DNA of 57,760 nt from Nitrospinota bacterium (GTDB lineage: Bacteria; Nitrospinota; Nitrospinia; JACRGO01). Shown piece after piece: positions 9,056 through 42,661 of this stretch. The stretch is from NCBI GenBank assembly GCA_016212295.1, contig JACRGO010000073.1:1-57760 (forward strand), in the 5' to 3' direction. Position 1 is the first letter of the stretch; every line of letters begins with the position of its first letter. A program made the position numbers and the translations under genes. The notes beneath the pieces were generated by a model. That model did no database searches, was not told the origin of the DNA, and saw nothing but the letters and a program-made list of their open reading frames with translations.

Positions 9056-9240
9056 GAACTTTGCGCCCTGAGGGCGGACTGCGAATAGAGCACTAAGCGG
9101 GCTTTGCCGCAACTACTTGTCTGTGTGCTGACACGCGCGGGCAGTAAAGAATTGACATCCCCCAGGCAAGGGGGGATCAAGGGGGGTGTGATTCATAGGT
9201 CTATTTGATCTTTAAAGATTAAAAAGGGAAATTCCTATAC
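9056..9240 (+). mobile_element. Family D element, copy 1 (hairpin end ... GGAAATTCCTATAC end) with partial CCCCC/GGGGG palindrome
   Basis: gaactttgCGCCCtgaGGGCGgact ... taaagaattgacatccccc ... ctatttgatctttaaagattaaaaagggaaattcctatac; homologous to 36231-36394. Left boundary uncertain (9056 or about 9131). Confidence 0.7.
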
Positions 9241-9268
9241 ATTTTAACCATCTCAAGGAGGAAATTTC

Positions 9269-9919
9269 ATGAAACGACATTCAAAAATTTTAATTTCAGC
9301 CGTCCTTGCGTTTTTTGGCCTTATCATTGGCCAGGCGCAAGCAGCAAGCAATGTGACCGTGGACGCCGCAAACAAAAGTATTTCTTTTCAAGCAACGGTT
9401 AACGGCGCCTATATGAAGGAAGGGTCCTGGCACCTTGCTGTCTACGAAGGCGGGACCAACAAAGGAAAATCCCTGTTCAGCGTGGCCAAGGCGACGCCGG
9501 AAGAAGTCCACAAGGCTTTAGAAGACATAGGTGGAAAGCCGGGCGACAACATGACCTCCACTAACGTCGGGCAACCGAATGTCAAGGTCAAAGGGACCTC
9601 CCTGGACGTTTATGTAAGTTGGGACGGACAATCGGAACCGCTGAAATTGCAAAATGTTCTTAAAGAGTTGAAACCCAATAAAAAAGCAACTGGAATTGAT
9701 ATCAAGTTCGGGGGCAACCTAAGTGACGCGGGAAAGTCCGCCGGGACCGGATGCATTATATGCATGTATAGCTGCCCGGCTGGAATTACCAGCAACGCCA
9801 AAATGAACTCTCACAAATTAACAAATCAAGATAAGGGCGCTTACCGCTATTTAGGCAACAGCGCCAAGCTACCTAAAGACGGCACGGAAGTGACCATCAC
9901 CTTGAAGATTAAAAAGTAA
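9269..9919 (+). CDS. ydjY: YdjY-domain exported protein
   Basis: AAGGAGG RBS, signal peptide (AQA), ALEDIGGKPGDN, FGGN, and GCIICMYSCPAGITSN (CxxCxxSC). Confidence 0.8.
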   Translation: MKRHSKILISAVLAFFGLIIGQAQAASNVTVDAANKSISFQATVNGAYMKEGSWHLAVYEGGTNKGKSLFSVAKATPEEVHKALEDIGGKPGDNMTSTNVGQPNVKVKGTSLDVYVSWDGQSEPLKLQNVLKELKPNKKATGIDIKFGGNLSDAGKSAGTGCIICMYSCPAGITSNAKMNSHKLTNQDKGAYRYLGNSAKLPKDGTEVTITLKIKK

Positions 9920-9957
9920 AAAACAAACGGCTGATGTTTTCAGCCGGTATCGTGTAA

Positions 9958-9998
9958 AATAAAAAGCCCGCCTTATTCCAACAGGCGGGCTTTTTATT
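9958..9998 (+). terminator. Intrinsic (bidirectional-type) terminator after ydjY
   Basis: aataaaaagcccgcct-N9-aggcgggctttttatt. Confidence 0.85.
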
Positions 9999-10010
9999 CA
10001 TAGGAGATAG

Positions 10011-10073
10011 CCTCACACAAAGACACAAAGGCCACAAAGGAAAATCTTAGTGGCTTAGCGGCTTTGTGTGAGG
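10011..10073. repeat. Short imperfect palindrome with tandem CACAAAG units
   Basis: cctcacacaaagacacaaaggccacaaag...cttagtggcttagcggctttgtgtgagg. Confidence 0.7.
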
Positions 10074-10104
10074 AATTTTTTAAAATCAAAAGGCTATCAT
10101 TAAA

Positions 10105-10938
10105 ATGCCACAAACAATTAATTTTTTTCTTGTCACCCTTTTACTCATAGTATTTCTTCCAGCAGCGGCCCTCGGCGGCGCGTGGACCGAGAGGAAGGGA
10201 CGCGGATACAATAAACTCGCCTTCAACTACTATCACTCGGACAAAAATTACGACACGGCGGGCAATAAGGCGGACGCGCCTTTCAACGGCGATTTCAGGG
10301 ACGCCAACGTCTCCATTTACGCCGATTACGGAATCACGGACGAATTGACAGTCCTCCTCTCCGCCTTTTACAAGTCCATGCGCTACATGGACGATAACCT
10401 CACTGAACATACGGACGCTTTCGGCGACCCTGAACTAGCGCTTAAATATAAACTGGGCCAATACAAAAACCTTTTCGCCTCCTTTCAGGCAGGGGCGAAA
10501 TTTCCCGGCTTGTACGGCAAACGCGGCCCGCTCCCTTCTGGAAATCACCAAATCGACATAGAGCCAAGGCTCCTGCTGGGCGTTTCCCTCTATCCCATCA
10601 CCGGTTACCTCAACCTGGAGGCCGCTTACCGCTACAGGGCGGAGGAGCCCGCCGACGAATTCCGCTATCTCCTTGAGGCCGGCTACAGCTTCACCCAGGA
10701 CATAGGCGTCAGGTGCAAACTGGACATAATCGAAAGCGCAAGAAACGGGGCCGTCCTGGCGGTGGAGGGCATGAACAAGACCATCACCTATCAATACGAC
10801 CTCTACAGGGTTGAACTGTCAGGCATTTACAGGCTTGCCGGGGGCTGGAGCCTGGAACTCACCTGCAATCCCACCTTCCATGGAAAAAACACCTCTCACG
10901 GCACGGCGTATTCAATGGGACTGGTCTGGGTGTATTGA
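10105..10938 (+). CDS. Outer-membrane beta-barrel protein of unknown function
   Basis: Signal peptide then GAWT; alternating aromatic strands; C-terminal aromatic (VWVY). Confidence 0.7.
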   Translation: MPQTINFFLVTLLLIVFLPAAALGGAWTERKGRGYNKLAFNYYHSDKNYDTAGNKADAPFNGDFRDANVSIYADYGITDELTVLLSAFYKSMRYMDDNLTEHTDAFGDPELALKYKLGQYKNLFASFQAGAKFPGLYGKRGPLPSGNHQIDIEPRLLLGVSLYPITGYLNLEAAYRYRAEEPADEFRYLLEAGYSFTQDIGVRCKLDIIESARNGAVLAVEGMNKTITYQYDLYRVELSGIYRLAGGWSLELTCNPTFHGKNTSHGTAYSMGLVWVY

Positions 10939-10980
10939 CCTTCCTTGAAGCAGCTATGAAGCCTGTGTTAATTTTATCGG

Positions 10981-12492
10981 ATGGACCTGCATGAATTGAT
11001 CAGCGGCTTGGAGGGCGTTTCCCTGCGGCTTGAGGGGGTTTCCGGCCCCTTGGACGTCACTGGCATCACCTTTGATTACAAAAGGTTGAAGCCTGGAAAT
11101 ATCTACGCCTGCCTCCATTGGGAGGAGTTTCTGGAACCTTATGTCCTCTCCAACGGATACGCCTACATCAAAGAGGCGCTGGAGAACGGCGCATCCTGCC
11201 TGCTGACGCAGGAAGGGGTCCCTTTTGACGAAAAAATTTCCTGTCCAAGGATCGTCGCCGGCCACGCCAACAAGGCAATGGCGCTGATAGCGGACCGCTT
11301 CCACGGCCACCCGATGAATAAAATGAAGGTTGTGGGGGTCACCGGCACAAACGGTAAAACCACCATAAATTTCGTCCTCCGCTCCATCCTCTCCCACGCG
11401 GGCCGCAAGCCTGGAATTATCGGGACAATGGGGACCCGCTCCGAGGTCTATAATGTCCCGCCCGGACTCTACACCACGCCGCTTTCAACCGATCTCTACC
11501 ATTCCGCCTCGGTGATGCTGGAAAGGGGGGTCGACACCATCGTCATGGAGTCCACTTCCCACGGAATTTCCCTGTTCAGGGAATACGGGACCGAGTACGA
11601 CGCGGTCATCTTCACCAATTTCTCACAGGACCATCTGGATTTCCATAAGGACCTGGACGATTACAAGAACGTGAAGCTGGGCCTCTTCCGGCGTCTGGAG
11701 CGACAGGCCGTGAAGAGGTCCCCGGAGGCGATTATCAACATTGATGATCCGGTGAGCGGGGAATTCCTGGAGGCGGCTAAAGTGCGCCGGATCACCTACG
11801 GAATAAAAAAACCGGCGGACGTTACAGCGCGCGATATTGAACTCTCGCTTGCCGGCAGCCGGTTCACCATCCAATACGATCAAGGGGAGGTCCTTCCTGT
11901 CCATTTCCGTCTGAGGGGGGAGTTCAACGTCTATAACGCCCTGGCTTGCTTCGCGGCGGCCCGATGCCTTGGCCTGGACGCCTTGAAAATAAAAGAAGGT
12001 CTTGAGGCGCTCACTGAAATTCCAGGCAGGTTCCAGACAATTGAGACCGGGACTGATATCACGGTGGTGGTGGATTACGCGCACACGCCTGATTCCCTGG
12101 AAAAGATTTTAAGGTCGGCCAAGGGCCTCCGCCCAAGAAGGCTCATAGCTGTCTTCGGGTGCGGCGGGGACCGCGACCCCAAGAAGCGTCCGGTGATGGG
12201 AGGGCTTGCGGTTCAAATTTCGGATGTGGTGATCGTCACATCCGACAATCCCAGAACGGAAGATCCTTCAATAATAGTCGACGAGATTTTGCAAGGAATC
12301 CCCAAGGAGGAAATGGGGAAGGTGGAGGCCATAGTGGACCGGAGGGAGGCCATCCGCCGCGCCCTGTCCATGGCGGAGCCGGGTGACCTGGTGGTGATCG
12401 CCGGCAAGGGCCACGAGGACTATCAGATCATCGGCAAGGAAAAGGTCCACTTCGACGACCGGGAAGAGGTGAGTAAGTTTTTCATGAAATAG
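10981..12492 (+). CDS. murE: UDP-MurNAc-L-Ala-D-Glu--meso-DAP ligase
   Basis: GVTGTNGKTT, ESTSHG, NFSQDHLDFH, VDYAHTPD, FGCGGDRD, DNPR (DAP specificity), AGKGHE. Confidence 0.93.
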   Translation: MDLHELISGLEGVSLRLEGVSGPLDVTGITFDYKRLKPGNIYACLHWEEFLEPYVLSNGYAYIKEALENGASCLLTQEGVPFDEKISCPRIVAGHANKAMALIADRFHGHPMNKMKVVGVTGTNGKTTINFVLRSILSHAGRKPGIIGTMGTRSEVYNVPPGLYTTPLSTDLYHSASVMLERGVDTIVMESTSHGISLFREYGTEYDAVIFTNFSQDHLDFHKDLDDYKNVKLGLFRRLERQAVKRSPEAIINIDDPVSGEFLEAAKVRRITYGIKKPADVTARDIELSLAGSRFTIQYDQGEVLPVHFRLRGEFNVYNALACFAAARCLGLDALKIKEGLEALTEIPGRFQTIETGTDITVVVDYAHTPDSLEKILRSAKGLRPRRLIAVFGCGGDRDPKKRPVMGGLAVQISDVVIVTSDNPRTEDPSIIVDEILQGIPKEEMGKVEAIVDRREAIRRALSMAEPGDLVVIAGKGHEDYQIIGKEKVHFDDREEVSKFFMK

Positions 12493-12511
12493 GAAGGAAC
12501 TTGATTTGTGT

Positions 12512-12540
12512 TTGACTTTAAAAAGCCGCTTTGTTACCCT
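12512..12540 (+). promoter_or_regulatory. Putative sigma70 promoter
   Basis: TTGACT-N17-TACCCT with a TGn extension. Confidence 0.35.
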
Positions 12541-12567
12541 CTTTTGGCGAGTTCAGGAGAGCAATCA

Positions 12568-12729
12568 ATGAAAGCATGCCATTATCTGTCCATTCTAAGC
12601 CTGGTTGTGTGGTATTTGCTGGGCCTGCGTGTCGCCCGCAAGCGCCAAAAACCTTCAGAGGAAAAAATTCCCGCCTTGGGCCAAGAGACCGCTGAACTAG
12701 CTAAAAACCTAACGACTCCGGCGAACTGA
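12568..12729 (+). CDS. Small single-pass membrane protein, 53 aa
   Basis: AGGAG RBS, ATG 12568, hydrophobic helix followed by RVARKRQK. Confidence 0.5.
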   Translation: MKACHYLSILSLVVWYLLGLRVARKRQKPSEEKIPALGQETAELAKNLTTPAN

Positions 12730-12730
12730 A

Positions 12731-12804
12731 AAATAGAACGCGGATGATGCTGATGACACGGATTATCGCGGATGAAATTTCTTTTAATCCGCGCTTCTCT
12801 ATTT
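12731..12804. repeat. Repeat family E (CGCGGAT/CACGGAT palindrome, GxxExxY-flank type)
   Basis: aaatagaacgcggatgatgctgatgacacggattatcgcggat...aatccgcg; left arm near-identical to 41108-41206. Confidence 0.8.
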
Positions 12805-12862
12805 ATAGCTTTAGCCACCTTAGCCCTATTAGGCGCCTTTTATAAAAGCGTTGACAATAAAT

Positions 12863-13222
12863 ATGATTATCCAACAGACCATGATCAAGGACCATAGGCC
12901 CTGGGGCTTTTATGAAGTCCTTTCGGATGCGGCGGACCACAAGGTAAAACGGATCACCGTCCACCCGGGCCATAGGCTGAGTTATCAGCGGCATTTCCGG
13001 CGGTCAGAGCATTGGTACGTGGTAAGCGGCAAGGCGGTGTTGACCAAGGACAGTGAGGAAATCGAGCTGGCGGCCGGCCAGGCCATGGATTTGCCCGCGC
13101 GCGCATGGCACCGCATCCGGAACAGCGGCGCTGAAAATCTGGTGTTTATCGAAGTCCAGACCGGTGATTATTTCGGAGAGGATGATATCGAGAGGTCGGA
13201 GGATGACTATGGCAGGGCCTGA
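12863..13222 (+). CDS. Cupin, mannose-6-phosphate isomerase type II C-terminal domain
   Basis: RPWG...VKRITVHPGHRLSYQRHFRRSEHW...HRIRN...IEVQTG.YFGEDDIER; start could be 12881. Confidence 0.9.
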   Translation: MIIQQTMIKDHRPWGFYEVLSDAADHKVKRITVHPGHRLSYQRHFRRSEHWYVVSGKAVLTKDSEEIELAAGQAMDLPARAWHRIRNSGAENLVFIEVQTGDYFGEDDIERSEDDYGRA

Positions 13223-13338
13223 GGAACCGGCCATCAAGCGTTGCGGCCATGCCGCGCACGCTTATTTATTTAATAAGGCTTTTTGGGGTTTGCCGGCTAT
13301 TTTAAAGGAAAGGACTTCGGATTAATCAATTCGCTAAG

Positions 13339-14763: not shown

Positions 14764-14835
14764 TTACTTCCACCTGAATTTTTATAATTTTTTCAATAAA
14801 AGCAGCTATGTTTTTCCACCCCAAAATTATTTCTC

Positions 14836-14905
14836 TTTTTTCTCCTGGTTTCCCGGATTCCTTATAAATATTCGTATATTAGGAAGCCAGGAAAGCAGGA
14901 AAAAA
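14836..14905. repeat. Short palindrome with tandem (C)AGGAA units
   Basis: ttctcctggtttcccggattcctta ... taggaagccaggaaagcaggaaaa. Confidence 0.6.
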
Positions 14906-14969
14906 CTTTCTAAATGAAAAATACAGGCTTTATTTTAATAGTACCGCCAGCAATAATCATATCCAAAGG

Positions 14970-16844: not shown

Positions 16845-16850
16845 TTTAAT

Positions 16851-17366: not shown

Positions 17367-17628
17367 GCCCCTACTATACAACAGGCGGCGCATCCCGGCA
17401 AGGTTTTCGGTTATCCTCCGCATCTTGTAAGGGAGAAGGACTTAACGTCATGTGGTTAGCGCATGAGCAATTCAAGTTTTCATGGAAAGTACCGATCAAC
17501 ATTAGAGATGGGATTGTGAAAAGATTCTTGTGAAAAAACCTGCATGAGTGAGATAATTGCCATATCAATGAAAATCTACTATTAAAATTAAACTATAGTT
17601 TAACAATCGGAAAATGGAGGCCCCCACA

Positions 17629-20316
17629 ATGAAAAAGTATTCCTTTCGCGCTTTTGCTCTCATCCTTATAATTTTTTCTTTTGCCGGCGCAGGCTTTCCC
17701 AGCCGCGCCTTCGGCGCGGACGCCTTCACAGCCATGAATATTTCCGCTGGAAATTCTTTTACCCTTATCATTACCGATGGCGGGAAAGTCCTGGCCTGGG
17801 GGCGAAATTCCGAAGGCCAACTAGGGGACGGGACAAAGAAGACAAGTTTTTCTTCAGTGGAGGTGAAAAATCTTGCGGATGTGAGTTCCATTTCCGCTGG
17901 AGGAAAATTTTCCATGGCCCTGAAAAAGAACGGGACCGTATGGGTTTGGGGGGACAATACCTATGGCCAGTTGGGGGATGGAACCACGGAAATGAAGAAT
18001 AGCCCGGTCCAAGTGCCGGGCCTTTCTGATGTGATTGCTATTGACGCTGGAGGCGCGCATGCCCTTGCCCTGAAAAAAGACGGGACTCTTTGGGCCTGGG
18101 GACAAAATTCTTATGCCCAGTTGGGGAATGGGACCACTGAGCACAGCTCAAGCCCGGTGCAGATGCTGGGTCTTGCCAACATAAAGATAAAAGCCATTGG
18201 CGCAGGAGAGTACAATTCCTACGCCCTCACGGAAAGTGGCGATGTTTGGGCTGTGGGGAGGTACAATGACGGCGAATTGGGAAACGGCGCCATGAGGCAG
18301 GATGTTGGTGGTTTTTATGAAAGCGTCCCTGTACAGGCCAATATCTCCGGGGTAAAGGACTTTTCCGTTGGGGGCCAACACGTTCTCGCCTTGATGAATG
18401 ATTTAACCGTCTTCCAGTGGGGAAGAAACATCAGCCCTGATCCGGTCAAGGTGACAAACCTTTCCAAGGTAAAGGCCATTGCCGCCGGCGGCCTTCATTC
18501 CCTGGCTATAAAGCAGGATGGGACTCTTTGGGCCTGGGGAGACAACCAGTCCGGCCAGTTGGGGAACGGCGGATATGTGAAGCAGGATGAGCCTGTTCAG
18601 GTCAAGCAATCCAAGTCTCCTGAAACATTTTTTTCCAAGGCAGCCGCCATTGCGGGAGGCTGGCAGCATACTATTGCAATTGCGGGAAGCGGGGCCCTTT
18701 GGGCCTGGGGAGACAATCACGAAGGGGAGTTGGGGACAAAGCTTGAAAGTGGATACAACAGCACTTATCCAGTCTCCATAGGCTCCAAGGCTGGTACTGG
18801 AGGCGGAACGACCGGCGGAGGAGGAACAACCGGAGGAGGTACTAGCGGAGGCACTGGCGGTAGTGGTGGAACAAGCGGAGGGGGGACCAAGGGAGACTGC
18901 GCGAAAGGATCGGGAAAGACTGGCAATATTTTCCAGGACGTAGCCACTTCTATATGCGAAGGTCCAAAGGATAAAACCGTTACCCCAAGAGATAAAGAAA
19001 AACCCTGGAGCGGCGTGGGGGAAGACATTTATGAAAAGGAAGGAAAAAAGGGTGGGGGGGGAACGGGCGGGTCCACTGGAGGCGGGTCCACAGGTGGCGG
19101 CTCCACAAGTGGCGGCTCAGGAACTGGAGGCACAACCAGCGGCGGGTCAACGGGAGGTGGATCTGGCACGAGAGGGCCCGCCATCAGCGCCATTAAAGTC
19201 GCCGCAGGCCTTGGGCATACCGTTGCCCTTAAAAAGGACGGATCGGTTTGGGCATGGGGAAGCAATCGGTATGGCATGTTGGGGGTGGGGAAAGATGATT
19301 TAAAATTGGGCAAATATCAAAATTATAACTTTACAAGCGTCCCATCCAAGGTGATTAATCTTACAGATGTGGAAGACATCGCGGCCGGGCGTTACCATAC
19401 TATTGCCCTCCGGAAGGACGGCACGGTTTGGACTTGGGGATATAATACATTCGGCCAGCTTGGGGATGGGACCAACAATGACGGCAACAAGCCCGTCAAG
19501 GTGAAAAATCTTACGCAGGTGAAGGCCATAGCGGCCGGAGATTATTTCAGCCTGGCGCTTAAAAAGGACGGCACTGTTTGGGCCTGGGGAATAAACAAAG
19601 AGTCCCAATTGGGAACAGACGCTAAAATAACCGGCGATGGGAGCAATGTGCCGGTCCAGGTGGAAAACATTTCAAACGCCAAGGCCATTGCCGCTGGGGC
19701 CGCAACCGGTTTCGCCATCCTTGGTGACGGCTCCGTTTGGGGATGGGGCTATAATCGTTCCGGCGAGATAGGAAACGGAGAAAAATTAAAAAATGCACAG
19801 GCGCCTGTACAGGTTAAAAATGTTTCAAATGTGGGGTCCATCGCTGTGGGCGAAAGCTCTTCCCTTGCCCTCATGAAGGACGGGACTGTATGGGGATGGG
19901 GATGTTCCTCAGTGGTCACGAAATGCCAGTTTGATCCTTACCAATTGGATTTATCAGATCTTTCCAACGTGGCGGCCGTGGACGCCGGAGGCGCTCATGC
20001 ACTTATATTAAAAGATAACGGGACCGTTTACGCATGGGGAAGCGGCGTTTCCGGCCAGTTGGGGGATGGGAAACATGGGTGGATCGGACCAGGCAGAACG
20101 GCGCATGAAAGCGAGGTCCTCGAAAAAACGCAGGGCCTGGCGAACATTAAGGCCATAGCTTGCGGCTTGCAGCATTCACTGGCCATAAAACAGGATGGGA
20201 CCATTTGGGCGTGGGGGGACAACAATTCCGGCCAATGTGGAGTAGACCCGGTAAAACCGGGCCTTTCCACCAATGACAATGACGAACTTAAACCCGTTAA
20301 GGTGTATGGGCCATAG
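17629..20316 (+). CDS. Secreted RCC1/BLIP-II repeat protein with two propellers and Gly/Thr/Ser linkers
   Basis: GGAGG RBS, signal peptide, about 14 repeats of IAAG..HSLAL..DGTVWAWG.N..GQLG; two GGT/GGS tracts around a short two-Cys segment. Confidence 0.9.
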   Translation: MKKYSFRAFALILIIFSFAGAGFPSRAFGADAFTAMNISAGNSFTLIITDGGKVLAWGRNSEGQLGDGTKKTSFSSVEVKNLADVSSISAGGKFSMALKKNGTVWVWGDNTYGQLGDGTTEMKNSPVQVPGLSDVIAIDAGGAHALALKKDGTLWAWGQNSYAQLGNGTTEHSSSPVQMLGLANIKIKAIGAGEYNSYALTESGDVWAVGRYNDGELGNGAMRQDVGGFYESVPVQANISGVKDFSVGGQHVLALMNDLTVFQWGRNISPDPVKVTNLSKVKAIAAGGLHSLAIKQDGTLWAWGDNQSGQLGNGGYVKQDEPVQVKQSKSPETFFSKAAAIAGGWQHTIAIAGSGALWAWGDNHEGELGTKLESGYNSTYPVSIGSKAGTGGGTTGGGGTTGGGTSGGTGGSGGTSGGGTKGDCAKGSGKTGNIFQDVATSICEGPKDKTVTPRDKEKPWSGVGEDIYEKEGKKGGGGTGGSTGGGSTGGGSTSGGSGTGGTTSGGSTGGGSGTRGPAISAIKVAAGLGHTVALKKDGSVWAWGSNRYGMLGVGKDDLKLGKYQNYNFTSVPSKVINLTDVEDIAAGRYHTIALRKDGTVWTWGYNTFGQLGDGTNNDGNKPVKVKNLTQVKAIAAGDYFSLALKKDGTVWAWGINKESQLGTDAKITGDGSNVPVQVENISNAKAIAAGAATGFAILGDGSVWGWGYNRSGEIGNGEKLKNAQAPVQVKNVSNVGSIAVGESSSLALMKDGTVWGWGCSSVVTKCQFDPYQLDLSDLSNVAAVDAGGAHALILKDNGTVYAWGSGVSGQLGDGKHGWIGPGRTAHESEVLEKTQGLANIKAIACGLQHSLAIKQDGTIWAWGDNNSGQCGVDPVKPGLSTNDNDELKPVKVYGP

Positions 20317-32064: not shown

Positions 32065-32116
32065 CGATGGCGGCGCGGAGCGGCTTGGCCGAGGCCAATT
32101 TGTTTTATGAAACTCT

Positions 32117-32317
32117 AGCCAAAAATATTTGAAATTTTCAAAAAAGGCGCAATGTTTTTTCACGGTTGGAGATACTTGCTCGCCTATTCCGAAAATTTAT
32201 CTCTTTTTGCCATAAAACGTTTCACTTTTTGCCGCCTTTTTGAAATTTCAAATATTTTTGGCTCATTGCCGAAATGAAATGTGCGCGATAAATTCTCAGA
32301 ATAGGCGAGTAAGTATC
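32117..32317. repeat. Two interleaved inverted-repeat pairs (A-B-A'-B')
   Basis: A 32117-32149 / A' 32233-32263; B 32171-32201 / B' 32287-32317 (28/31 match). Confidence 0.85.
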
Positions 32318-32491
32318 CAAATCTCAATTGTCAAATAACAAATAAACCCCAATAACCAAAATTACAAATGACAAACAAGGGAATGGAATTGTTTTGGACA
32401 TTCGGTAATTGCAATTTGTAATTTATTTGTAATTTGCTATTTGTCATTTGGGATTTTTTTTCACTTTTGCTTGCGGCGAAGCCGCGCAATG
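32318..32491. repeat. Repeat family A, copy 5
   Basis: caaatctcaattgtcaaataacaaataaa...atttgtcatttgggatttt plus tail gcttgcggcgaagccgcgc. Confidence 0.85.
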
Positions 32492-32527
32492 TCATCCGTG
32501 TTCCACTAAAAATAGAATCCCAACGCC

Positions 32528-33475: not shown

Positions 33476-33611
33476 AAGGAAGGCGAAGGGCGAAGAGGCG
33501 GAAGACTGAAGGCGGAGGCCAGAGGACGGAAGGCAATTGTCGATTGTCAATTGTAAATGGTCAACTACTAACCCCTAACCGCTATCCGCTAACCCCTAAT
33601 CGCTATCCGCT
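33473..33611. repeat. Stack of three different heptamer tandem arrays between convergent genes
   Basis: GAAGGC/AGAGGAC-type units; (CAATTGT)-type x4 at 33534-33564; (CTAACCC/CTATCCG) x6 at 33568-33611. Confidence 0.75.
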
Positions 33612-33615
33612 GCTA

Positions 33616-36204
33616 TCAGGCATTTACCAGCGAGGCGCCGCAGCACTTCTTGTACTTCTTTCCGCTTCCGCACGGGCATGGGTCGTTCCTGCCGACCTTT
33701 GGGGCTTCCCGCTTCACGGTGTGCGGCTCAGGGGCGCCGCCTCCCTCGAATTCTCCCCTGTGCTCAATCATCCTGGCCGGCTTTCTTGGGGCCTCCCTCA
33801 CCCGGATTTCCTCCGGGGTGGAGATATGAACGTGGAAGATGGTCTGTGTAATAGTCTCCTTGGCGCGGGCCACCATATCGCTGAACAGGTCGAACCCTTC
33901 CTTCTTATATTCATTGAGTGGGTTTTTCTGGGCGTAGCCCCTCAGTCCCACGGACTCCTTAAGGTGGTCCATTGTGAGGAGATGGTCCTTCCACTGCGAA
34001 TCAATGGTCTGCAGCATGACGTTCGTAAGGAGCATGTCCGTGATCTCCTTGGGAATATTGCTCATCCGCTCCTCAAAGGACCTTTGAATTATTCCGTGGA
34101 GTTTTTCCTTCAGCCCTTCCCTGTCCACGCCGGCGATGTCCGCCGCGTCACTCCCGTCAAGCCTCGAAATTTTGCCAGCCCCCACGTCGATCTTGAGGTG
34201 GAGGTTGAAGAGCCGCAGGAGCGCCTCTTCCAGGCCGCGAAGGTCCCACTCCTCCGCGTATAATTTGGGGTCCACGTAGGCGTCGATGTTCTCCTCCAAT
34301 ACGTCGTCCACCATCTCCATGAGGGTGTTCTTGAGGCTTTCCCCGGTTAGGATCTGGCGTCTGAGGTCGTACACAACCGTCCTCTGCTTGTTCATGACGT
34401 CATCATATTCCAGGAGATGCTTCCGCATGTCGAAGTTGTGGGCCTCCACCTTCTTTTGCGCGTTCTCAACGGCCCTGGTGATGAACTTGTGCTCAATGGG
34501 CTCTCCCTCTTCCATGCCCAGTTTTTCCATGATCCCGGAGATCCTTTCGGAGCCGAAGATCCTCAGGAGGTCGTCCTCAAGCGAGAGATAGAACCTTGAT
34601 GAGCCAGGGTCGCCTTGCCTGCCGGAGCGGCCCCGCAACTGGTTGTCGATCCGCCTGCTTTCGTGCCGCTCGGTGCCTATGATGTGGAGTCCGCCGAGGT
34701 CCGGCACGCCCTCCTCCAGCACTATGTCCGTTCCCCTCCCCGCCATGTTGGTGGCGATGGTGACGCCCGCCTTTCTTCCGGCCTTTGCCACTATCTCCGC
34801 CTCGCGCTCGTGGTGCTTGGCGTTCAAGACATTGTGCGGCACCCCTTTTTTCTTCAGCAGGGCGCTCAACCTTTCCGACTTCTCGATGGAGATGGTCCCG
34901 ACCAGCACGGGCTGGCCTTTCTTGTGGAGTTCCTGTATCTCGTCCGCCGCGGCGTTGAATTTTTCCCGCACCGTGCGGTAGATCACGTCGGAAAATTCCT
35001 TGCGTATCATTGGCCTGTTTGGAGGAATGACCAGCACCTCCAGCTTGTAGATGGCGGAGAATTCAGCGGCCTCGGTGTCGGCGGTGCCGGTCATCCCGGC
35101 CAGTTTTTTATATAGCCGGAAATAATTCTGGAAGGTGATGGTTGCCAGGGTCTGGTTCTCGCTCTCGATCTTCACGTCCTCCTTTGCCTCAAGAGCTTGG
35201 TGAAGGCCGTCGCTGTACCTTCTCCCGGGCATGAGCCTTCCCGTGAATTCATCCACTATCAGCACCTCGTCCTCCTTGACCACGTAGTCAACGTCCCTCT
35301 TGAAAATCTTGTGCGCCTTGAGGGCCTGGTTCACGTGGTGCAGGAGTTCGATGTTGCTGGGATCATAAAGATTTTCCACCGGGATGGCCTTTTCCACCTT
35401 GGCCACGCCCTCCTCGGTGAGAAACACCGTGCGGGTCTTCTCCTCGATCTGATAGTCCTCCTTGTTCAACCTGGGGATGATTTTGTTGATCATGTAATAC
35501 TTGTCGGTTGAGTCCTCGGAAGGCCCTGAGATTATAAGCGGGGTCCTTGCCTCGTCGATGAGTATGCTGTCCACCTCATCCACTATGGCGTAGTTGAGTT
35601 CCCTCTGGACATAGTCCTTGAAGGAGTATTTCATGTTGTCGCGCAGGTAGTCGAAGCCGTACTCGTTATTGGTCCCGTAGGTGATGTCCGACCCGTACGC
35701 CTGCTGGCGCTCGGAGTCGTTCATTCCGTGCTGGATGACTCCAACGGACAGGCCCAGGAATTTGTAAACGGCGCCCATCCATTCGCTGTCGCGCCTGGCG
35801 AGGTAGTCGTTGACCGTCACCACATGCACCCCTTTCCCGGCCAGGGAGTTAAGGTACACGGGAAGGGTGGCCACAAGGGTCTTCCCCTCCCCGGTCTTCA
35901 TCTCCGCTATCTTCCCCTCGTGGAGGACCACTCCCCCTATGAGTTGGACGTCGAAATGCCGCATGTTCAGGGTCCTTCTGGCCGCCTCCCTCACAACAGC
36001 GAAGGTCTCAGGAAGCATTTCCTCCAGGGTCGCGCCTCTTTCTATTTTGCCCTTGAACTCAACGGTTTTTTGCCTTAAATCATCGTCGGAGAGGCTCCGG
36101 GTCTGTTCCTCCAAGGAGTTGATCTGGACAACGTAGGGCTGGAGCCTCTTCAATTCACGGTCGTTTCTGGTCCCGAATATTTTTTTGAATATATGGTTGA
36201 TCAT
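33616..36204 (-). CDS. secA: Preprotein translocase subunit SecA
   Basis: [65 protein letters not shown]. Confidence 0.99.
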
Positions 36205-36230
36205 GGATGCCTGCGCCTTTTTAAAGAATT

Positions 36231-36394
36231 GAACTTAACGCCCTTCGGGCGGACTTTAAAGAATTGACATCCCCCTAGCCCCCTTTTTTAAGGGGGAATA
36301 TCTCAAAAATTCCCCCCTGGCAAGGGGGGATCAAGGGGGGTGTGCTTCATGTATCTATTTGATTTTAAAAGATTAAAAATGGAAATTCCTATAC
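36231..36394 (+). mobile_element. Family D element, copy 2, carrying CCCCCT/AGGGGG palindromes
   Basis: gaacttaaCGCCCttcGGGCGgactttaaagaattgacatc ... atttgattttaaaagattaaaaatggaaattcctatac. Confidence 0.75.
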
Positions 36395-36410
36395 GTTTTA
36401 AATATTTTTT

Positions 36411-36538
36411 TTACTGCTATTGGGAAAATAATCGCTGCTCAAAAAGTTGCGTGTTACGTGTTGCGGGGCGTCTTTTCAACCCGCGACTCGCAACCCGCAA
36501 CAAGTTGGTAATCAAAAATATTTTACGATAGCCGTTTA
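36411..36538. repeat. Inverted GTTGCG/CGCAAC heptamer palindrome inside an imperfect outer IR
   Basis: gttgcgtgttacgtgttgcgg...cccgcgactcgcaacccgcaac (36446-36501); outer actgctattgggaaaata / tattttacgatagccgt. Confidence 0.6.
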
Positions 36539-36540
36539 AT

Positions 36541-36580
36541 AAAAAAAAACCCCAGCGGTAAAATTCCATTCCGCCGGGGT
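36541..36580 (-). terminator. Intrinsic terminator after the M23 gene
   Basis: Minus strand ACCCCGGCGG-N12-CCGCTGGGGT followed by a T tract. Confidence 0.75.
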
Positions 36581-36644
36581 ATATACCCTTATATTTTATT
36601 ATAATGGAAAATTCTTTTAAAAAAAACCGGTTCCAATCCGGTCC

Positions 36645-37586: not shown

Positions 37587-37652
37587 TCGGAATTTGAACC
37601 TTAGGAAACATTACTCCAAAAAGAATGAAAAAGCCGTACATACTGGGGGTTT

Positions 37653-37681
37653 ACTTTATAGAATTTTGCCCTTTTTGTCAA
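37653..37681 (-). promoter_or_regulatory. Putative sigma70 promoter for the M23 gene
   Basis: Minus strand TTGACA-N17-TAAAGT. Confidence 0.5.
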
Positions 37682-37791
37682 GTAAATTTTAAAAATTAAA
37701 ATTACTTTTCCTTGGAAATCCGTGTCATCAGCGTTATCCTCTGCCGGTTGCATAGCCCAGACGGGACTATGGAGCCGGCAAGGATTTTTTT

Positions 37792-40700
37792 TCATATTCT
37801 GACTTCTGGCTTCTGGCCTTCGATACCCGGCGCCTGCCCCCTGTCTTCATTTATACCCCGCGCGCGCCAGATATAAAAAATGGCTGGATACACAGCGAGT
37901 TCCATTATAGTGGAAGTGACGACGCCGCCGACCATCGGCGTTGCGATGCGCTTCATCACGTCAGCCCCGGCCCCGCTGCTCCATAGAATGGGAAGCAGGC
38001 CCGCGATGATCACCGCCGCGGTCATGGCCTTTGGACGCACCCTCTTCACCGCGCCGTGGTAAATGGCGTCACGCAGGTCCGCCGGACCCCGCATCTTGCC
38101 CTTGCTGCTCCATTCCCCGTAAGCCAGGTCCAGATAGAGGAGCATCACCACGCCCGTTTCCGCGTCCAGGCCGGCCAGGGCTATCAGCCCCACCCAAACC
38201 GCCACGCTAAGGTTGTAGCCTGACAGGTACAGCATCCAGAAGGCGCCGACGAGCGAAAACGGCACAGCCAGGAGCACTATGGCGGTCTTCACCATTGACC
38301 GGGTGTTTAGATAGATGATCAGCACGATGATCATAAGCGTGAGCGGGACCACGATCAGGAGCCTCTGCTTGGCCCGGACCATGTACTCGTACTGCCCGGA
38401 CCAGAAGATGTTGTATCCAGCGGGCATGCGGATGGTCCCCTTGTCCAGGGCCTCCTTCACAACGGCCTGGGCCGACTCCACATACCGCCCGACGTCGATG
38501 TCCTTCACGTCCACGTAAATCCAGGCGTTGGGAACAGCGTCCTCGCTCTTTATTCCCATCGGGGCGCGGACCACTTCCACGCTCGCCAGTTGTCCAAGCG
38601 GAATGTGCGCCCCCACGGGAGTGGGAACGATGATTTCCCTCAACGACTCCAGGTCCTTGCGGAAATCGCGGTCATAGCGAAGGTTCACGGTGTAACGCTG
38701 AAGCCCCTCCACCGTGGTGGTGAGGGGCATGCCGCCAAGGGCCACTTCCAGCACCTCCTGGACCTCTCCAACGGTGAGGCCGTACCGCGCGATCTCGTCG
38801 CGGTTGATTGTGAACTCAACGTAATTTCCCCCCATCACGCGCTCCGCGAAGACGCTTGCCGTGCCCTGGACTTTTCGCATCACAGGCTCAATCTCGGAGG
38901 CGATCCGCTCAAGCTCCGCCAAGTCCGGCCCGGCCACCTTGATCCCGACCGGGGTTTTGATACCGGTCGCCAGCATGTCGATGCGCGTCTTGATGGGCAT
39001 GGTCCAGGCGTTGTTCAGTCCGGGGATTTGAACAGCGGCGTTCATGGCCTCCACCAGCTCGTCCGGGGTCCGGCGGCGGTGGGCCTTCACCTTTCCGCGT
39101 TCGTCCAAAATGTCCGCCTCCGGCCATTCGCTTTCGTCCTTTAGCATGATGGTGGTTTCGACCATGTCAAAGGGGGCCGGGTCGGTTGCGGTTTCAGCGC
39201 GGCCTATCTTGCCGAACACGTGGTGGACCTCCGGGAAGGTTTTTATTATCTTGTCAGTCTGCTGAAGGACCTCCCGCGCCTTTGTAGGGGAGATGCCTGG
39301 AAAGGTAGTCGGCATGTACAGGAGGTCTCCTTCATAAAGCGGCGGCATGAATTCGGAGCCGAGGTTTTGGAAGGGGAAGGTTTTCCCCGCGCCAAGGGAG
39401 ATTGTCTTCAACCATCCTTCCGGGAGCCGGTTGGCAATCAGCCGATTCCAGGGGAAGAAGACCCACGCCACCAGGATGGCGGCTCCAAAAATCACCGCGA
39501 CGCGGCGGCGTATGGCCCAGTCGATCACCGGATGATAGGCCCATATCAGGAACCGGTTTACCGGGCTCTTCTCCTCCGGGACCATCTTTCCCCTGATAAA
39601 ATATCCCATGAGGATAGGGGCCAGGGTCACGGAGAGTAGGGCCGCCGCGCCCATTGAGTAAGTCTTGGTAAAGGCAAGGGGCTTGAAGAGGCGTCCCTCC
39701 TGGGCCTGAAGGGTAAAGACTGGAATAAATGAAACGGTTATGACAAGCAGCGAATAAAAAAGGGTCGGCCCCACCTCGATGGAGGCGTCCCTGATGATCT
39801 CCCAATGCGGCTTCCTGCCGCCGTCGCGCTCAATGTGCTTGTGGGCGTTCTCTATCATGATGATGACGGCGTCCACCATTGCCCCTATGGCTATGGCTAT
39901 GCCGCCCAGGGACATGATGTTGGAGCTAAGCCCCTGGCCGTACATGATGAGAAAGGAGATGAGGACCGCTATGGGGAGGATGAGAATGGCCACGAGCGCG
40001 CTCCTGAAATGAAGCAGGAAGAGGAGGCAGACCAGCGCCACCACAAGGCTTTCCTCAATCAGCTTTTCCTCAAGGGTCTTCACGGCGCGATTGATGAGCG
40101 CGCTACGGTCATAGGCGATCTGGTAATGAACGTCGGGCGGGAGCGACTTCATGGCCTGGTCCAGACGTTTTTTAACGTCCTGGATCACCTGGCGGGCGTT
40201 TGCCCCGTACCGCACAACCACTATCCCTCCAACGGTCTCCCCTTCCCCGTTCCATTCAGCTATGCCCCGGCGCATGTCGGGTCCAAGCTGCACGGTCGCA
40301 GCCTGGTCCAGGAGGACCGGGACGCCGTTTGCGCCCACGGCCACCGCGATTTTTTTCAGGTCGCCCAGTCCCTTGATATAACCCCGCACACGCAGCACGA
40401 ACTCCTTTTCCGCCATTTCCATGGCGCGGCCCCCGACCTCTCCATTGCTCCTCTTGATCGCCATGGCGATCTCGGAGATGGAAAGACCGTATGCGCGGAG
40501 CTTGGTGGGGTCCACCGTGATCTGGTACTGCTTCACGAATCCGCCGATGGAGGCCACCTCCGACACGCCTTCAACCGAGGTGATCTGATATTTGAGATAC
40601 CAGTCCTGCATGGAGCGCAGCTCGGCCAGGTCGCGTTCCTTGGATTGAATGGAGTACATGAAGGCCCAGCCAACGCCCGTTGCGTCAGGACCTAGTGAGG

Positions 40701-41079
40701 GCGTGACGTTCTTGGGCAGGCTTGCGGCCAGTCCGCTTAGGTATTCGAGGACCCGGCTCCTGGCCCAATAGGGATCGGTCCCGTCCTCGAAGATCACGTA
40801 CACAAAGGAAAAACCGTAGAAGGAATAGCCGCGCACCACCTTGGCATAGGGGACGGATAGCATCTTGGTTGTGATGGGATAGGTTACCTGGTCCTGGACG
40901 ATTTGCGGGGCCTGGCCCGGCCATTCGGTGTAGACGATCACCTGGGTGTCGGAGAGGTCAGGTATGGCGTCAAGGGGGATGTTTTTGAGGGCGTATAAGC
41001 CGCCGAGCACGAGGACCGCCGTGGCCGTGAGCACGATGAATTTATTTTTCAGGGAAAAATCGATTATGGATTGGAGCAT
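37792..41079 (-). CDS. cusA: CusA/SilA heavy-metal efflux RND permease
   Basis: DAIPDLSDTQVI, YWARSRVLEYL, GSEFMPPL.EGDLLYMP, RIDMLATGIKTPVG, RVRPKAMT. Confidence 0.96.
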   Translation of the reverse strand: MLQSIIDFSLKNKFIVLTATAVLVLGGLYALKNIPLDAIPDLSDTQVIVYTEWPGQAPQIVQDQVTYPITTKMLSVPYAKVVRGYSFYGFSFVYVIFEDGTDPYWARSRVLEYLSGLAASLPKNVTPSLGPDATGVGWAFMYSIQSKERDLAELRSMQDWYLKYQITSVEGVSEVASIGGFVKQYQITVDPTKLRAYGLSISEIAMAIKRSNGEVGGRAMEMAEKEFVLRVRGYIKGLGDLKKIAVAVGANGVPVLLDQAATVQLGPDMRRGIAEWNGEGETVGGIVVVRYGANARQVIQDVKKRLDQAMKSLPPDVHYQIAYDRSALINRAVKTLEEKLIEESLVVALVCLLFLLHFRSALVAILILPIAVLISFLIMYGQGLSSNIMSLGGIAIAIGAMVDAVIIMIENAHKHIERDGGRKPHWEIIRDASIEVGPTLFYSLLVITVSFIPVFTLQAQEGRLFKPLAFTKTYSMGAAALLSVTLAPILMGYFIRGKMVPEEKSPVNRFLIWAYHPVIDWAIRRRVAVIFGAAILVAWVFFPWNRLIANRLPEGWLKTISLGAGKTFPFQNLGSEFMPPLYEGDLLYMPTTFPGISPTKAREVLQQTDKIIKTFPEVHHVFGKIGRAETATDPAPFDMVETTIMLKDESEWPEADILDERGKVKAHRRRTPDELVEAMNAAVQIPGLNNAWTMPIKTRIDMLATGIKTPVGIKVAGPDLAELERIASEIEPVMRKVQGTASVFAERVMGGNYVEFTINRDEIARYGLTVGEVQEVLEVALGGMPLTTTVEGLQRYTVNLRYDRDFRKDLESLREIIVPTPVGAHIPLGQLASVEVVRAPMGIKSEDAVPNAWIYVDVKDIDVGRYVESAQAVVKEALDKGTIRMPAGYNIFWSGQYEYMVRAKQRLLIVVPLTLMIIVLIIYLNTRSMVKTAIVLLAVPFSLVGAFWMLYLSGYNLSVAVWVGLIALAGLDAETGVVMLLYLDLAYGEWSSKGKMRGPADLRDAIYHGAVKRVRPKAMTAAVIIAGLLPILWSSGAGADVMKRIATPMVGGVVTSTIMELAVYPAIFYIWRARGINEDRGQAPGIEGQKPEVRI

Positions 41080-41107
41080 GTTTTTTCTCCATGAGACGGG
41101 TATTTAA

Positions 41108-41206
41108 AAATAGAACGCGGATAACGCTGATGGCACGGATTATCGCGGATAAAGTTTCTTTTAATCCGTGAAAATCAGAACAATCCGTGTCATCCGTGTT
41201 CTATTT
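41108..41206. repeat. Repeat family E, full palindrome upstream of cusA
   Basis: aaatagaacgcggataacgctgatggcacggatt ... aatccgtgtcatccgtgttctattt. Confidence 0.85.
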
Positions 41207-41220
41207 AAAAAAACTAATTT

Positions 41221-41258
41221 ATTTGATTGTTAAAGGTAAAAAATGTAAATTCCTATGC
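41221..41258 (+). mobile_element. Family D, isolated oriIS-like end
   Basis: atttgattgttaaaggtaaaaaatgtaaattcctatgc matches 36357-36394. Confidence 0.6.
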
Positions 41259-41632
41259 TATTGAATTTTTTTTGCAATCTGAAACACTGAAATCGTATTG
41301 ACGAATAGAAACAGCCCGTCGAATATTAAATTTTCCGCGCCCTTTAAGCCTGACAAGGCGAGTAAATATATCATTACATAAATAACAGCGCCACCCGCGA
41401 TAAGGCCGAATATGTATCCAAGATAATGTCCACGAAACAAAAGAACGGACGCGGCAAAATATACCGGTATGAAAAAGAGATCAGGGTATATGAGGGAATT
41501 GTACGCCTCCTGGGGAAAGGCTTCCGGTCTCTTCCAGCTTCCCGCGATAACTGAAAACACCGCGTAAGCCTGAAAAGCCCCCCAGGCAAAAAACCAAATT
41601 ATCGCTGTCCACGGTTTTTTCATTTTCATCAA
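41258..41632 (-). CDS. Four-TM hypothetical membrane protein
   Basis: 124-aa ORF with four hydrophobic segments; its 3' part is duplicated at 42328-42661. Confidence 0.7.
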   Translation of the reverse strand: MMKMKKPWTAIIWFFAWGAFQAYAVFSVIAGSWKRPEAFPQEAYNSLIYPDLFFIPVYFAASVLLFRGHYLGYIFGLIAGGAVIYVMIYLLALSGLKGAENLIFDGLFLFVNTISVFQIAKKIQ

Positions 41633-41714
41633 TGCCTACTATGAGGCTCGATCTTTACCCACTCCTCCGGGTGGCGTTATCGTCCAGCCATTCGGAATGT
41701 TTGCGTTGCCATGG

Positions 41715-42239
41715 TCATTTTTCTTCCTTGCAACCTTTAAACCCTATTTTGGGGCGAAGGGGTGCGGATGGGGTCATCAATTGCCTTATTGCGTCGAACA
41801 CAACCTTGAATTGGGCGTCGTATTTCTTCTCCATGACTTCCAACTTTTTTGCCAAGTCTTTGTGGGCCGCAAGCATTTGCCGCAACCGCACGAAGGTCCG
41901 CATGATCTCTATATTCACCTTGACGGCCCTTTCACTATTGAGCACAGTGGAGAGCATGGCCACGCCCTGCTCGGTGAAAACATACGGGAGATAGCGGCGC
42001 CCTCCACGGCCTCCTTTTTTTGACATTCCAATTTGGAATCTCAAAGAATCAGTTTCCTCTTTGGTGAGCTGAAACATGAAGTCTTGAGGGAAGCGTCCAA
42101 CATTTCTTTTCACCGCCTTATTGAGATTGAAAGTCTCTACTTCATAAAGTTCCGCTAAATCACTGTCCAGCATGACTTTCTCACCACGGATCAGAAAGAT
42201 TTTCTTTTCGATGATTTCAACCGGTATCAAAGCTTCCAT
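41715..42239 (-). CDS. ORF6N domain DNA-binding protein
   Basis: [50 protein letters not shown]. Confidence 0.93.
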
Positions 42240-42298
42240 TTACCCTCCAAATCAAAGCCAATATTGGAAAGCTGTTTTTCAATCTCCTCGTTCAATCG
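42227..42298 (-). pseudogene. Fragment resembling the C-terminus of a Type I R-M HsdM
   Basis: Hand translation [23 protein letters not shown], overlapping the ORF6N start. Confidence 0.5.
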
Positions 42299-42327
42299 AA
42301 TTTACAGCAGCATGGATGCGGGATTAA

Positions 42328-42661
42328 TGAATTCTTTTGACAATCTGAAGCACTGAAATCGTGTTGACGATTAGAAAAAGCCCGTCGAATATTAAATTTG
42401 TAGTATAGGAATTTCCATTTTTTTAGCTTATGAATCAACGAGATGCTAAATGCATAAGAGGAAAAAACTGAACATCCAACATCGAACGTCCAACATCGAA
42501 GTAAGAAAAATTCGTTTTACGTTTTAAATCCTTTCTTCCTTTTTCGACGTTCGACGTTCAATGTTGGATGTTCGATGTTCAATTCTTTAAAGCCCGCCCG
42601 AATGGCGTTAATTTATCCGCGCCCTTTAAGCCTGACAGGGCGAGTAAATATATCATTACAT
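42328..42661 (-). pseudogene. Diverged duplicate of the 3' ~115 bp of the 41258-41632 gene, split by a family D insertion
   Basis: 42328-42399 joined to 42616-42661 aligns with 41262-41379. Confidence 0.85.
42400..42615 (-). mobile_element. Family D element, copy 3, with AACATCG/CGATGTT heptamer palindrome cargo
   Basis: Minus strand taaattaaCGCCAttcGGGCGggctttaaagaattgaacatc ... ggaaattcctatactac; sits between AAATTT and TCCGCG of the duplicated fragment. Confidence 0.85.

Follow-up and report, generated by a model that had tools for sequence, protein, structure and literature searches.

A high-copy family of two-ended miniature elements in a Nitrospinota genome, very probably derived from an IS91-family rolling-circle insertion sequence

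Insertion sequences (IS) of the IS91 family have mostly been studied as vehicles of resistance and virulence genes that are present in one or a few copies. According to one account (PMC13181058), they produce no target site duplication (TSD) and insert beside 5'-CTTG or 5'-GTTC, which abuts the origin end (oriIS); at the terminus end (terIS) one subterminal palindrome adjoins a GTTC (or CTCG) cleavage site, a bottom-strand circle is the functional intermediate, and CTTG, GTTC and CTCG (the complements of CAAG, GAAC and CGAG) are the target and cleavage tetranucleotides of the family. Miniature derivatives with some 80-90 bp per end transpose with the transposase TnpA acting in trans (PMC13181058; PMC3189936), and for IS801 a second source gives GAAC, GGAC, CAAG and CGAC as targets, a left end with a G+C-rich stem-loop, and natural miniature one-ended fragments that are mobilised in trans (PMC3189936). 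Here we describe Family D, a family of short repeats with three complete copies in the stretch of DNA that was analysed (the window: the whole 57,760-nt contig JACRGO010000073.1 of assembly GCA_016212295.1, which is contig C15 of a Nitrospinia-like assembly of 3.74 Mb in 237 contigs, 90.5% complete, hereafter G000). We propose, with a probability of about 0.88, that the members of Family D derive from a rolling-circle insertion sequence of the IS91 family, are non-autonomous and have had their interior replaced. The ends of the family, their boundaries, the copy number, the absence of TSDs and terminal inverted repeats (TIRs), the target preference, the covariation of the hairpin and the patchy distribution are all established directly from the data described below, as are the existence of an autonomous partner and the family to which it belongs.

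The complete copies in the window open with (G/T)AA(C/A)TT(A/T) and a CGCC(C/A)-NNN-GGGCG hairpin, and close with ...TTTGAT..AAAAA(T/G)GGAAATTCCTATAC plus three further bases. Copy 1 (9056..9243, plus strand, 188 bp) has the left (ter) end GAACTTTGCGCCCTGAGGGCGGAC, the right (ori) end ...TATTTGATCTTTAAAGATTAAAAAGGGAAATTCCTATACATT and G/C palindromes in mid-element, and its hairpin (9064..9076, plus strand, CGCCC-TGA-GGGCG) carries TGA in the loop versus the family consensus TTC on an unchanged stem. Copy 2 (36231..36397, plus strand, 167 bp), which belongs to subfamily a, has its ter hairpin (CGCCC-TTC-GGGCG; 36239..36251, plus strand) 8 nt inside the left boundary and the conserved ori-end core ATCTATTTGATTTTAAAAGATTAAAAATGGAAATTCCTATACGTT at 36353..36397 (plus strand). 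Copy 3 (42400..42615, minus strand, 216 bp, TAAATTAACGCCATTCGGGCGGGC...AAAAATGGAAATTCCTATACTAC) is a member of subfamily b and contains a palindrome (42470..42573, 41-nt arms, GAACATCCAACATCGAACG...) at the place where the subterminal palindrome of the ori end belongs. A fourth, 5'-truncated copy (41106..41261, plus strand) lacks the ter hairpin and joins a palindromic 'ATCCGTG' middle module, 92% identical to 12729-12791, to a diverged ori end, AAAATGTAAATTCCTATGCTAT. The first-pass annotation of this stretch had placed copies at 9056-9240, 36231-36394 and 42400-42615 (minus strand) and an end at 41221-41258, and all are present as it described them. Conservation runs 3 nt past TATAC, and therefore the copies end at 9243, 36397 and 42400. 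The end at 41221-41258 is real, though it is part of the truncated copy and not the solitary end it had been taken for, and the proposed end motif TAAAGAATTGA is found in two of the three main subfamilies, subfamily c having TTTAAAGAGTCATTGG instead. Four matches to the 19-mer AAAATGGAAATTCCTATAC, at up to 3 mismatches, are present in the window versus 0.03 expected (0 of 100 shuffles reached four), and the 24-mer of the left end occurs once versus 0.00 expected, so that these repeats are not a matter of chance.

In G000 as a whole there are 116 right (ori-type) ends, counted by a fuzzy motif search with up to 3 mismatches, and 110 left (ter-type) ends, the left end being GAACTTA plus the CGCCC/GGGCG hairpin and the right end ...TTTGAT..AAAAATGGAAATTCCTATACTAT. 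Under the rule that a hairpin lies no more than 330 nt upstream of an ori end, 69 of the 116 belong to paired elements of about 145-290 bp, and 65 under a stricter variant that uses the 24-mer left end. The main subfamilies a (25 full copies, G5/C5 palindromes), b (14 full copies, GAACATCGAAC... palindromes) and c (19 full copies, GTCATTGGTCA... palindromes) differ in the middle only, while a further 11 full copies are of other types, and identity within subfamilies has a pairwise median of 87-89% with best pairs at 98-99%. The boundaries are sharp. On the left, information content is about 0.1-0.2 bit outside the element and jumps above 1.2 bit precisely with the G of GAAC (G at element position 0 in 56 of 67 copies, T as the preceding base in 41 of 67), and on the right it is high through the TAT after TATAC (present in 69 of 116 genome copies), weaker and still clear over the next 7 bases, (T/A)AAATTA, and at background thereafter. 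That the ends are asymmetric and lack TIRs, as had been noted from the window alone, holds for the family: inspection shows no relation between the left 24-mer and the right 23-mer, and an inverted-repeat scan lists internal palindromes only. All five base pairs of the ter hairpin are intact in 44 of 69 copies and four in another 21, and its stem covaries across metagenomes (CGCCC/GGGCG, CGCGC/GCGCG, CGCAC/GTGCG); the hairpin is maintained by compensatory change. On the complementary strand the ter end reads as the hairpin CGCCC-GAA-GGGCG followed by TTAAGTTC^ (the caret here and below marks a junction), and single-strand folding of copies is far better than that of shuffled sequences (z = -3.4 and -5.3), with 8 nt between the ter hairpin and the 3' end and another palindrome just inside the ori core.

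Four insertions can be compared with an uninterrupted site, and each is precise and without target duplication. The flanks of copy 3 (42325-42399 and 42616-42661), once joined, are identical to a continuous paralogous empty site in the window (41259..41379, junction between 41333 and 41334; tattaaattt^tccgcg at 41324-41339), with no base gained or lost; the first-pass annotation had seen no clear TSD for this copy, which is borne out, and the slight ambiguity that it saw in the boundary disappears, the empty site being exactly equal to the joined flanks. Two further copies, on contigs C10 and C147, sit within another repeat family whose uninterrupted form reads ...CAAA^TAAATTAC..., and an autonomous element on the metagenome contig L107 splits an open reading frame (ORF) with an HKD motif. 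Excision of exactly GAAC...CTAT from L107 restores the frame seen in contig C63 of G000, and the uninterrupted gene of a related genome, G004, is colinear with the insertion site to the base. Empty sites, the search for which the first-pass annotation had recommended, are thus available for copy 3, for the repeat of C10 and C147, and for L107.

Insertion takes place 5' of (T/C/G)A(A/G)(A/G/C)TTA. The tetranucleotide that flanks the ori end is TAAA in 19, AAAT in 10, TTAA in 9 and GAAC in 6 of 116 cases in G000, and CAAG in 24, TAAA in 20, AAAT in 6, CGAG in 5 and GAAC in 5 of 82 cases in metagenomes, so that CAAG, GAAC and CGAG together make up 34 of 82 metagenome copies and TAAA, AAAT and TTAA together 38 of 116 in G000. 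The heptamer after the ori end resembles the first 7 nt of the element itself, and the elements therefore also insert directly before one another: head-to-tail pairs account for 4 of the 116 right ends in G000, and arrays are also found in the metagenome contigs L128 and L164. We considered the heptamer as a TSD and rejected this, since agreement between the left GAACTTA and the heptamer that follows the right end is occasional only (contig C7 is an example); the left one is thus part of the element, and the target is the right one. Within 300 nt of the next gene, 37 copies are co-directional with it and 43 opposed, and 21 copies lie inside ORFs, all by a crude ORF caller. Of the 43 opposed copies, which have a convergent ORF within 300 nt, 18 have their ori end no more than 11 nt from the stop codon of that ORF, and in copies of G000 that face the 3' ends of genes the TTA of the target heptamer is often the stop codon on the opposite strand.

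The autonomous partner of these elements exists and belongs to a divergent subgroup of the IS91 family. A metagenome scan with AAATGGAAATTCCTATAC matched more than 123 stretches, of which 80 were examined, and among these are elements of 1.53-1.56 kb with the same two ends as Family D, namely a GAACTTA-hairpin (GAACTTA(A/G)CGCCCTTCGGGCGGAC or a stem variant) on the left and AAATGGAAATTCCTATAC plus 3 nt on the right. Seven distinct contigs have a transposase gene beside the motif (L107, L114, L120, L125, L128, L172 and L174); the exact 18-mer of the ori end adjoins that gene in all seven, and the transposases are 49-100% identical to one another. L107, L125, L128 (two copies) and L172 have the GAACTTA-hairpin at a distance of 1.53-1.56 kb from the ori end; in L114, L120 and L174 the locus is cut or a left end of this kind was not recognised. 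Contig L128 has the order mini - autonomous - mini - autonomous, and the core of about 45 nt that ends copy 2 also terminates the autonomous elements. The representative transposase, P0002 (435 aa), matches Pfam Zn_Tnp_IS91 (PF14319; 5.5e-16) and Y2_Tnp (PF04986; 8.5e-30) and scores 217 bits against the NCBIfam model for IS91 family transposases (NF033538; cut-off 125). These two IS91 domains are all that Pfam finds, and there is no helicase domain; on reading the sequence we recognise an HUH-type motif, HLH(I), and RYLAKY with two tyrosines. The tnpA gene has its start 66-90 nt in from the ori end and is read toward the ter hairpin, beside which it ends in L107, L125, L128 and L172; it also starts beside the ori end in L114, L120 and L174, though no ter end was seen there. 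P0002 and the genus's other IS91-type transposase have an identity of only 24-28%. The closest annotated plasmid relative, a transposase from Piscirickettsia salmonis, is 40% identical, but no comparable ends were recognised there and it did not help with the question of orientation.

The suggestion of the first-pass annotation that these are non-autonomous elements mobilised by an IS91-type HUH enzyme is therefore supported by autonomous elements with the same ends that encode an IS91-family transposase. The search that it proposed for an HUH transposase with these ends succeeded in metagenome contigs and failed in the assembly and in 120 relatives, and the genome's own IS91-type genes did not prove to be the partner, as the relics in G000 belong to another subgroup (see below). 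Capture of flanking DNA by read-through of terIS, which it thought possible, finds no evidence in these copies: their variable 'cargo' consists of alternative palindromic modules, at the position of the parent's own subterminal palindrome.

On the proposed reading, each copy retains both cis-acting ends of a parent of about 1.55 kb, with one of several palindromic modules in place of the transposase gene: a terIS-type end, GAACTTA plus a 5-bp G+C hairpin (hairpin-TTAAGTTC on the complementary strand), and an oriIS-type end, the core of about 45 nt ...TTTGAT...AAAAATGGAAATTCCTATACTAT with a palindrome before it. By homology with IS91, IS801 and IS1294, nicking, rolling-circle or single-strand-circle steps and mobilisation in trans can be envisaged as follows. 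An IS91-family transposase with Zn-binding and HUH/Y2 domains, acting in trans, would nick the ori junction, on the transferred strand 5'-(TAA)GTTC / TTTA / CTTG^ATAGTATAGGAATTTCC; strand displacement would proceed up to the hairpin-TTAAGTTC^ site, and the single strand would enter 3' of a target that resembles its own ter-proximal heptamer, without duplication. The predicted junction of a single-strand circle is ...CCTATACTAT^GAACTTA..., and the transferred strand is predicted to be the sense strand of tnpA, which is opposite to IS91.

The distribution of the family is patchy. Allowing up to 1 mismatch, we count 79 occurrences of the 17-mer AATGGAAATTCCTATAC in G000, five in a genome of the same genus and 2-10 in the genomes of two other genera; among 120 genomes of the class and phylum set it is matched in 21 and absent from 99, and a reversed-pattern control gave 0 in G000 and no more than 1 elsewhere. 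The palindromic middle modules on their own are far more widespread, in many genomes of the class. A contig (record 9) of run X2, from a strain about 94% identical, bridges positions 36204 to 36536 by 45 nt versus 331 in the window, and because the gap between secA and the next gene is so much shorter this related strain is without copy 2 and the neighbouring repeat. The secA intergenic region of the same-genus genome is also shorter and free of the element, but its identity of 72% is too low to define boundaries.

Several observations weigh against our proposal. A P0002-type gene is not found in G000, nor a close one in the 120 genomes of the class and phylum, and mobilisation in this lineage is unproven for that reason; the contigs with autonomous elements have no 300-nt or longer stretch in common with G000, and their link to Nitrospinia is one flanking gene, 73% identical in nucleotides to G004 and 59-86% in amino acids to contig C63. 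IS copies often fail to assemble, and the copies in G000 are orphans whose parent is either unassembled or lost, in which case the copies are fossils. No circle junction or excision product could be demonstrated in the contigs; a joint from 36394 to 36230 with TA between does have the sequence of an ori-ter junction, but it is uninformative because head-to-tail genomic arrays explain it equally well, and contigs, on which this comparison was made, do not reveal rare forms. The canonical targets GAAC, CAAG and GGAC together account for only 10 of 116 sites in G000, where the preference is mainly for the A/T-rich TAAATTA, and the ori end of Family D runs 5 nt (ACTAT) past the CCTAT where the elements of the genome's other IS91 subgroup stop. 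Finally, 45 ter-type and about 47-51 ori-type ends in G000 are unpaired, with no sign of the excess of solo ori over solo ter ends that one-ended transposition predicts, and among the solo ter ends at least 8 are joined to another module; the family has thus also been shaped by recombination or modular shuffling. One could go further and regard the copies as inert fossils spread mainly by recombination and shuffling of palindromic units, the ends shared with an IS reflecting an ancient origin without any mobilisation in trans here. The missing transposase and the unpaired ends suit this reading, as do the occurrence of the same modules alone in many genomes of the class and the replacement of the HUH region of a transposase pseudogene (L035) by such a module. 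Precise, TSD-less insertions beside a consistent target are hard to obtain by recombination, however, some pairs of copies are still 98-99% identical, and a strain about 94% identical is without copy 2, and we regard this reading as very unlikely, although it is the strongest of the three alternatives.

Slightly less credible again is the idea that the right-end core is a promoter or regulatory cassette, with TATACT as the -10 box and GGAAATTCC as an operator, kept by selection upstream of genes. Copy 1 does end 25 nt before the ATG of an ORF (9269-9919) that has a Shine-Dalgarno sequence, co-directional ORFs begin 8-50 nt downstream of several others, and ISCR1 is reported to have outward promoters on the oriIS side (PMC6218425). 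We nevertheless dropped this reading on the unbiased orientation of the copies (37 versus 43), the motif's absence from 99 of 120 related genomes, and a simple sigma-70 scan that found no outward promoter in copy 1; the same core, moreover, terminates a transposase-bearing element. Individual copies may still have been co-opted as regulatory sequence. Elements of the repetitive extragenic palindrome (REP) type with REP-associated tyrosine transposases (RAYT), and those of IS200/IS605, likewise have hairpin ends, sequence-specific insertion and no TSD, and Family D might accordingly be thought to consist of REP-like repeats, bacterial interspersed mosaic elements (BIMEs) or palindrome-associated transposable elements (PATEs), moved by a Y1 HUH transposase, either a RAYT or an IS200/IS605 TnpA. 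The repeats are indeed mosaic and hairpin-rich like BIMEs, and G000 has two genes with a Y1_Tnp domain (C179:6934-7266 and C211:14616-14861). The gene on C211 has its own, different palindromes of the GGATTTGCAATCC type, however, and the only full-length elements with both ends of Family D encode a Zn_Tnp_IS91 plus Y2_Tnp protein, which makes a Y1 origin the least probable of the alternatives that we considered.

The gene on C211 and its palindromes constitute a separate REP/RAYT system: it encodes a Y1_Tnp (RAYT-like) protein of 180 aa and lies (locus L003, C211:13116-16361) between arrays of short palindromes (GGATTTGCAATCC, GTTACAAACCTGTAAC) at positions 1100-1400 and 1960-2300 of the locus. 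No Y1 gene was seen between Family D ends, and near the Y1 gene on C179 there is no solo ter-type end among the ter ends listed for that contig. At least eight solo GAACTTA-hairpin ends (at C8:1644, C16, C33:2057, C88, C95:10664, C97:39344, C200 and C221) are followed by an A-run, CAGGAGCCAGG repeats and a TGGCTCCATAG...CTATGGAGCCA palindrome, without a GGAAATTCCTATAC end, and represent a further mosaic repeat family that shares the ter-type end.

The IS91-type genes of G000 itself are fragments only, of a type represented by P0001, with the ori end AAATTCCTAT^CAAG, and in five chosen relatives and the 120 related genomes only genes and relics of this type, with the same ori end, were found. 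An intact P0001 gene (450 aa; Pfam Zn_Tnp_IS91 and Y2_Tnp) is present in the same-genus genome, with a hairpin and ...AAAAAAGCAAATTCCTAT^CAAG about 230 nt downstream. The oriIS motif that the first-pass annotation gave for IS91 and ISCR elements, AATTCCTAT, does occur in this setting: AAAGC-AAATTCCTA(T/G)^CA.. lies downstream of relatives of P0001 in at least 18 of 43 loci, in several phyla, and AAATTCCTAT is common to the ori end of Family D and the P0001-type ends (at least 18 of 43 loci). None of the P0001-type loci examined has a gene with Family D ends, and in two of them (L028 and L034) the terIS was not definable and no GAACTTA-hairpin lies upstream. Relics of P0001 type in G000 (C14, C86:12-202, C186:26679-26870, C194:1299-1491, C106 and C153) comprise ori ends of about 190 nt, with a hairpin and AAAAAAGCAAATTCCTAT^CAAG, and five transposase fragments. 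In L028, from the same-genus genome, the intact gene is followed by four tandem copies of the ori end. At L035:1190-1275, a pseudogene 81% identical to P0001 has its HUH-motif stretch replaced by GGCGGAC and the palindromic module of subfamily c, and because of this replacement modular shuffling also played a part; the palindromic modules may move or recombine on their own.

Around the window copies, copy 2 has its left end 26 nt upstream of the start codon of secA, confirmed at 33616-36204 on the minus strand and thus on the opposite strand to the copy. Copy 3 lies between a gene with an ORF6N domain and one for a ResIII helicase/endonuclease. The first-pass annotation had named secA and ydjY as genes next to copies; the former is confirmed and the latter is not, ORF 9269-9919 having no Pfam family match. 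At 12694-12795 a degenerate sequence like the left end is followed by the module of 41106-41168 (92% identical) without an ori end, and this is probably a 3'-truncated relative. A separate and abundant intergenic family with palindromes rich in CAAAT/ATTTG occupies 3256-3460, 4262-4442, 6291-6635, 7693-7869 and 32316-32503; its palindromes reach 177 nt and are 89% complementary between copies, and members elsewhere in the genome host two inserted copies of Family D. An ORF at 17614-20316 (900 aa) has tandem coding repeats of about 150 nt (...KDGTVWAWG...), which by eye resemble the RCC1-type beta-propeller kind.

A natural two-ended miniature family at about a hundred copies in one genome provides a large data set of ends and sites, and it extends recognition of the ter site and of the target beyond the classic tetranucleotide to a heptamer common to the start of the element and its target. 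It also identifies a transposase clade in which the gene is inverted relative to the ends. Family D accounts for much of the intergenic repeat load of this metagenome-assembled genome and probably for some of its fragmentation, and GAACTTA-hairpin ... GGAAATTCCTATAC can serve as an annotation signature for Nitrospinia and metagenomes. Full-text searches of the literature, with ISfinder and most subscription journals beyond reach, yielded no account of miniature IS91 derivatives that keep two ends and reach high copy number, and a prior description is possible.

With IS91, IS801, IS1294 and IS1294b the Family D system shares a Zn_Tnp_IS91 plus Y2_Tnp transposase, asymmetric ends and the lack of a TSD, and with the IS91 family also a G+C-rich subterminal hairpin beside a GTTC tetranucleotide at the ter end and a palindrome-bearing ori end; the tetranucleotide that this end abuts is CTTG, GTTC or CTCG on the transferred strand in a part of the copies only (34 of 82 in metagenomes). 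It differs in the five extra ori-terminal nucleotides, in a target that is effectively a heptamer like the first 7 nt of the element and mostly A/T-rich in G000, and in its layout, since the parent reads ori-tnpA->ter, unlike the ter-tnpA->ori of IS91 and of the P0001 type; this last is a criterion of organisation and not of catalysis or cis-acting sites. The nearest miniature forms are the IS801 fragments of Pseudomonas syringae (229-679 nt), which are likewise short, derived from the IS91 family and in possession of the ori end; they begin with a target-like tetranucleotide, are mobilised in trans, and are simple 5'-truncations without a ter hairpin and at low copy number (PMC3189936). Family D, in contrast, keeps both ends, has unrelated palindromes as its interior and reaches about 65-110 copies in one genome. 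Like MITEs (miniature transposable elements with inverted repeats), REP/BIME sequences and PATEs derived from IS200/IS605 it is small, abundant, intergenic, hairpin-rich and non-autonomous, but it has neither the TIRs nor the TSDs of MITEs, and its partner is an IS91-type enzyme, unlike the Y1 transposases of REP and PATE elements. The ISCR elements, a rolling-circle group related to IS91, have an ori end with a ...TTCCTATAC...-like terminus, and they are known for the lack of a recognisable terIS and for the capture of adjacent resistance genes, whereas Family D has a well-defined ter hairpin and carries no genes; P0001 gives a sub-threshold match to NCBIfam ISCR clade Ia, and that of P0002 is much weaker. 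Helitrons have the ori 5' of the sense strand of their gene, a subterminal hairpin a few nucleotides before the 3' terminus, no TSDs or TIRs, and abundant gene-less derivatives. Tentatively, and as something possible rather than probable, we suggest that the parents of Family D form an undescribed IS91-superfamily subgroup whose layout is Helitron-like (ori 5' of the tnpA sense strand, hairpin 8 nt before the 3' terminus), with a nick site of about 7 nt shared by terminus and target, and a tendency to spawn high-copy, gene-less families that swap palindromes. If so, they would be to bacteria what non-autonomous Helitrons are to eukaryotes, and would be widespread among uncultured bacteria of groundwater and sediment. 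The likeness is one of working and not of membership, seen in the side of the ori, the hairpin, the absence of TSDs and TIRs and the gene-less copies that keep their termini, while the lack of a helicase domain, the bacterial host, the far smaller size and the different terminal sequences set Family D and its parents apart from Helitrons.

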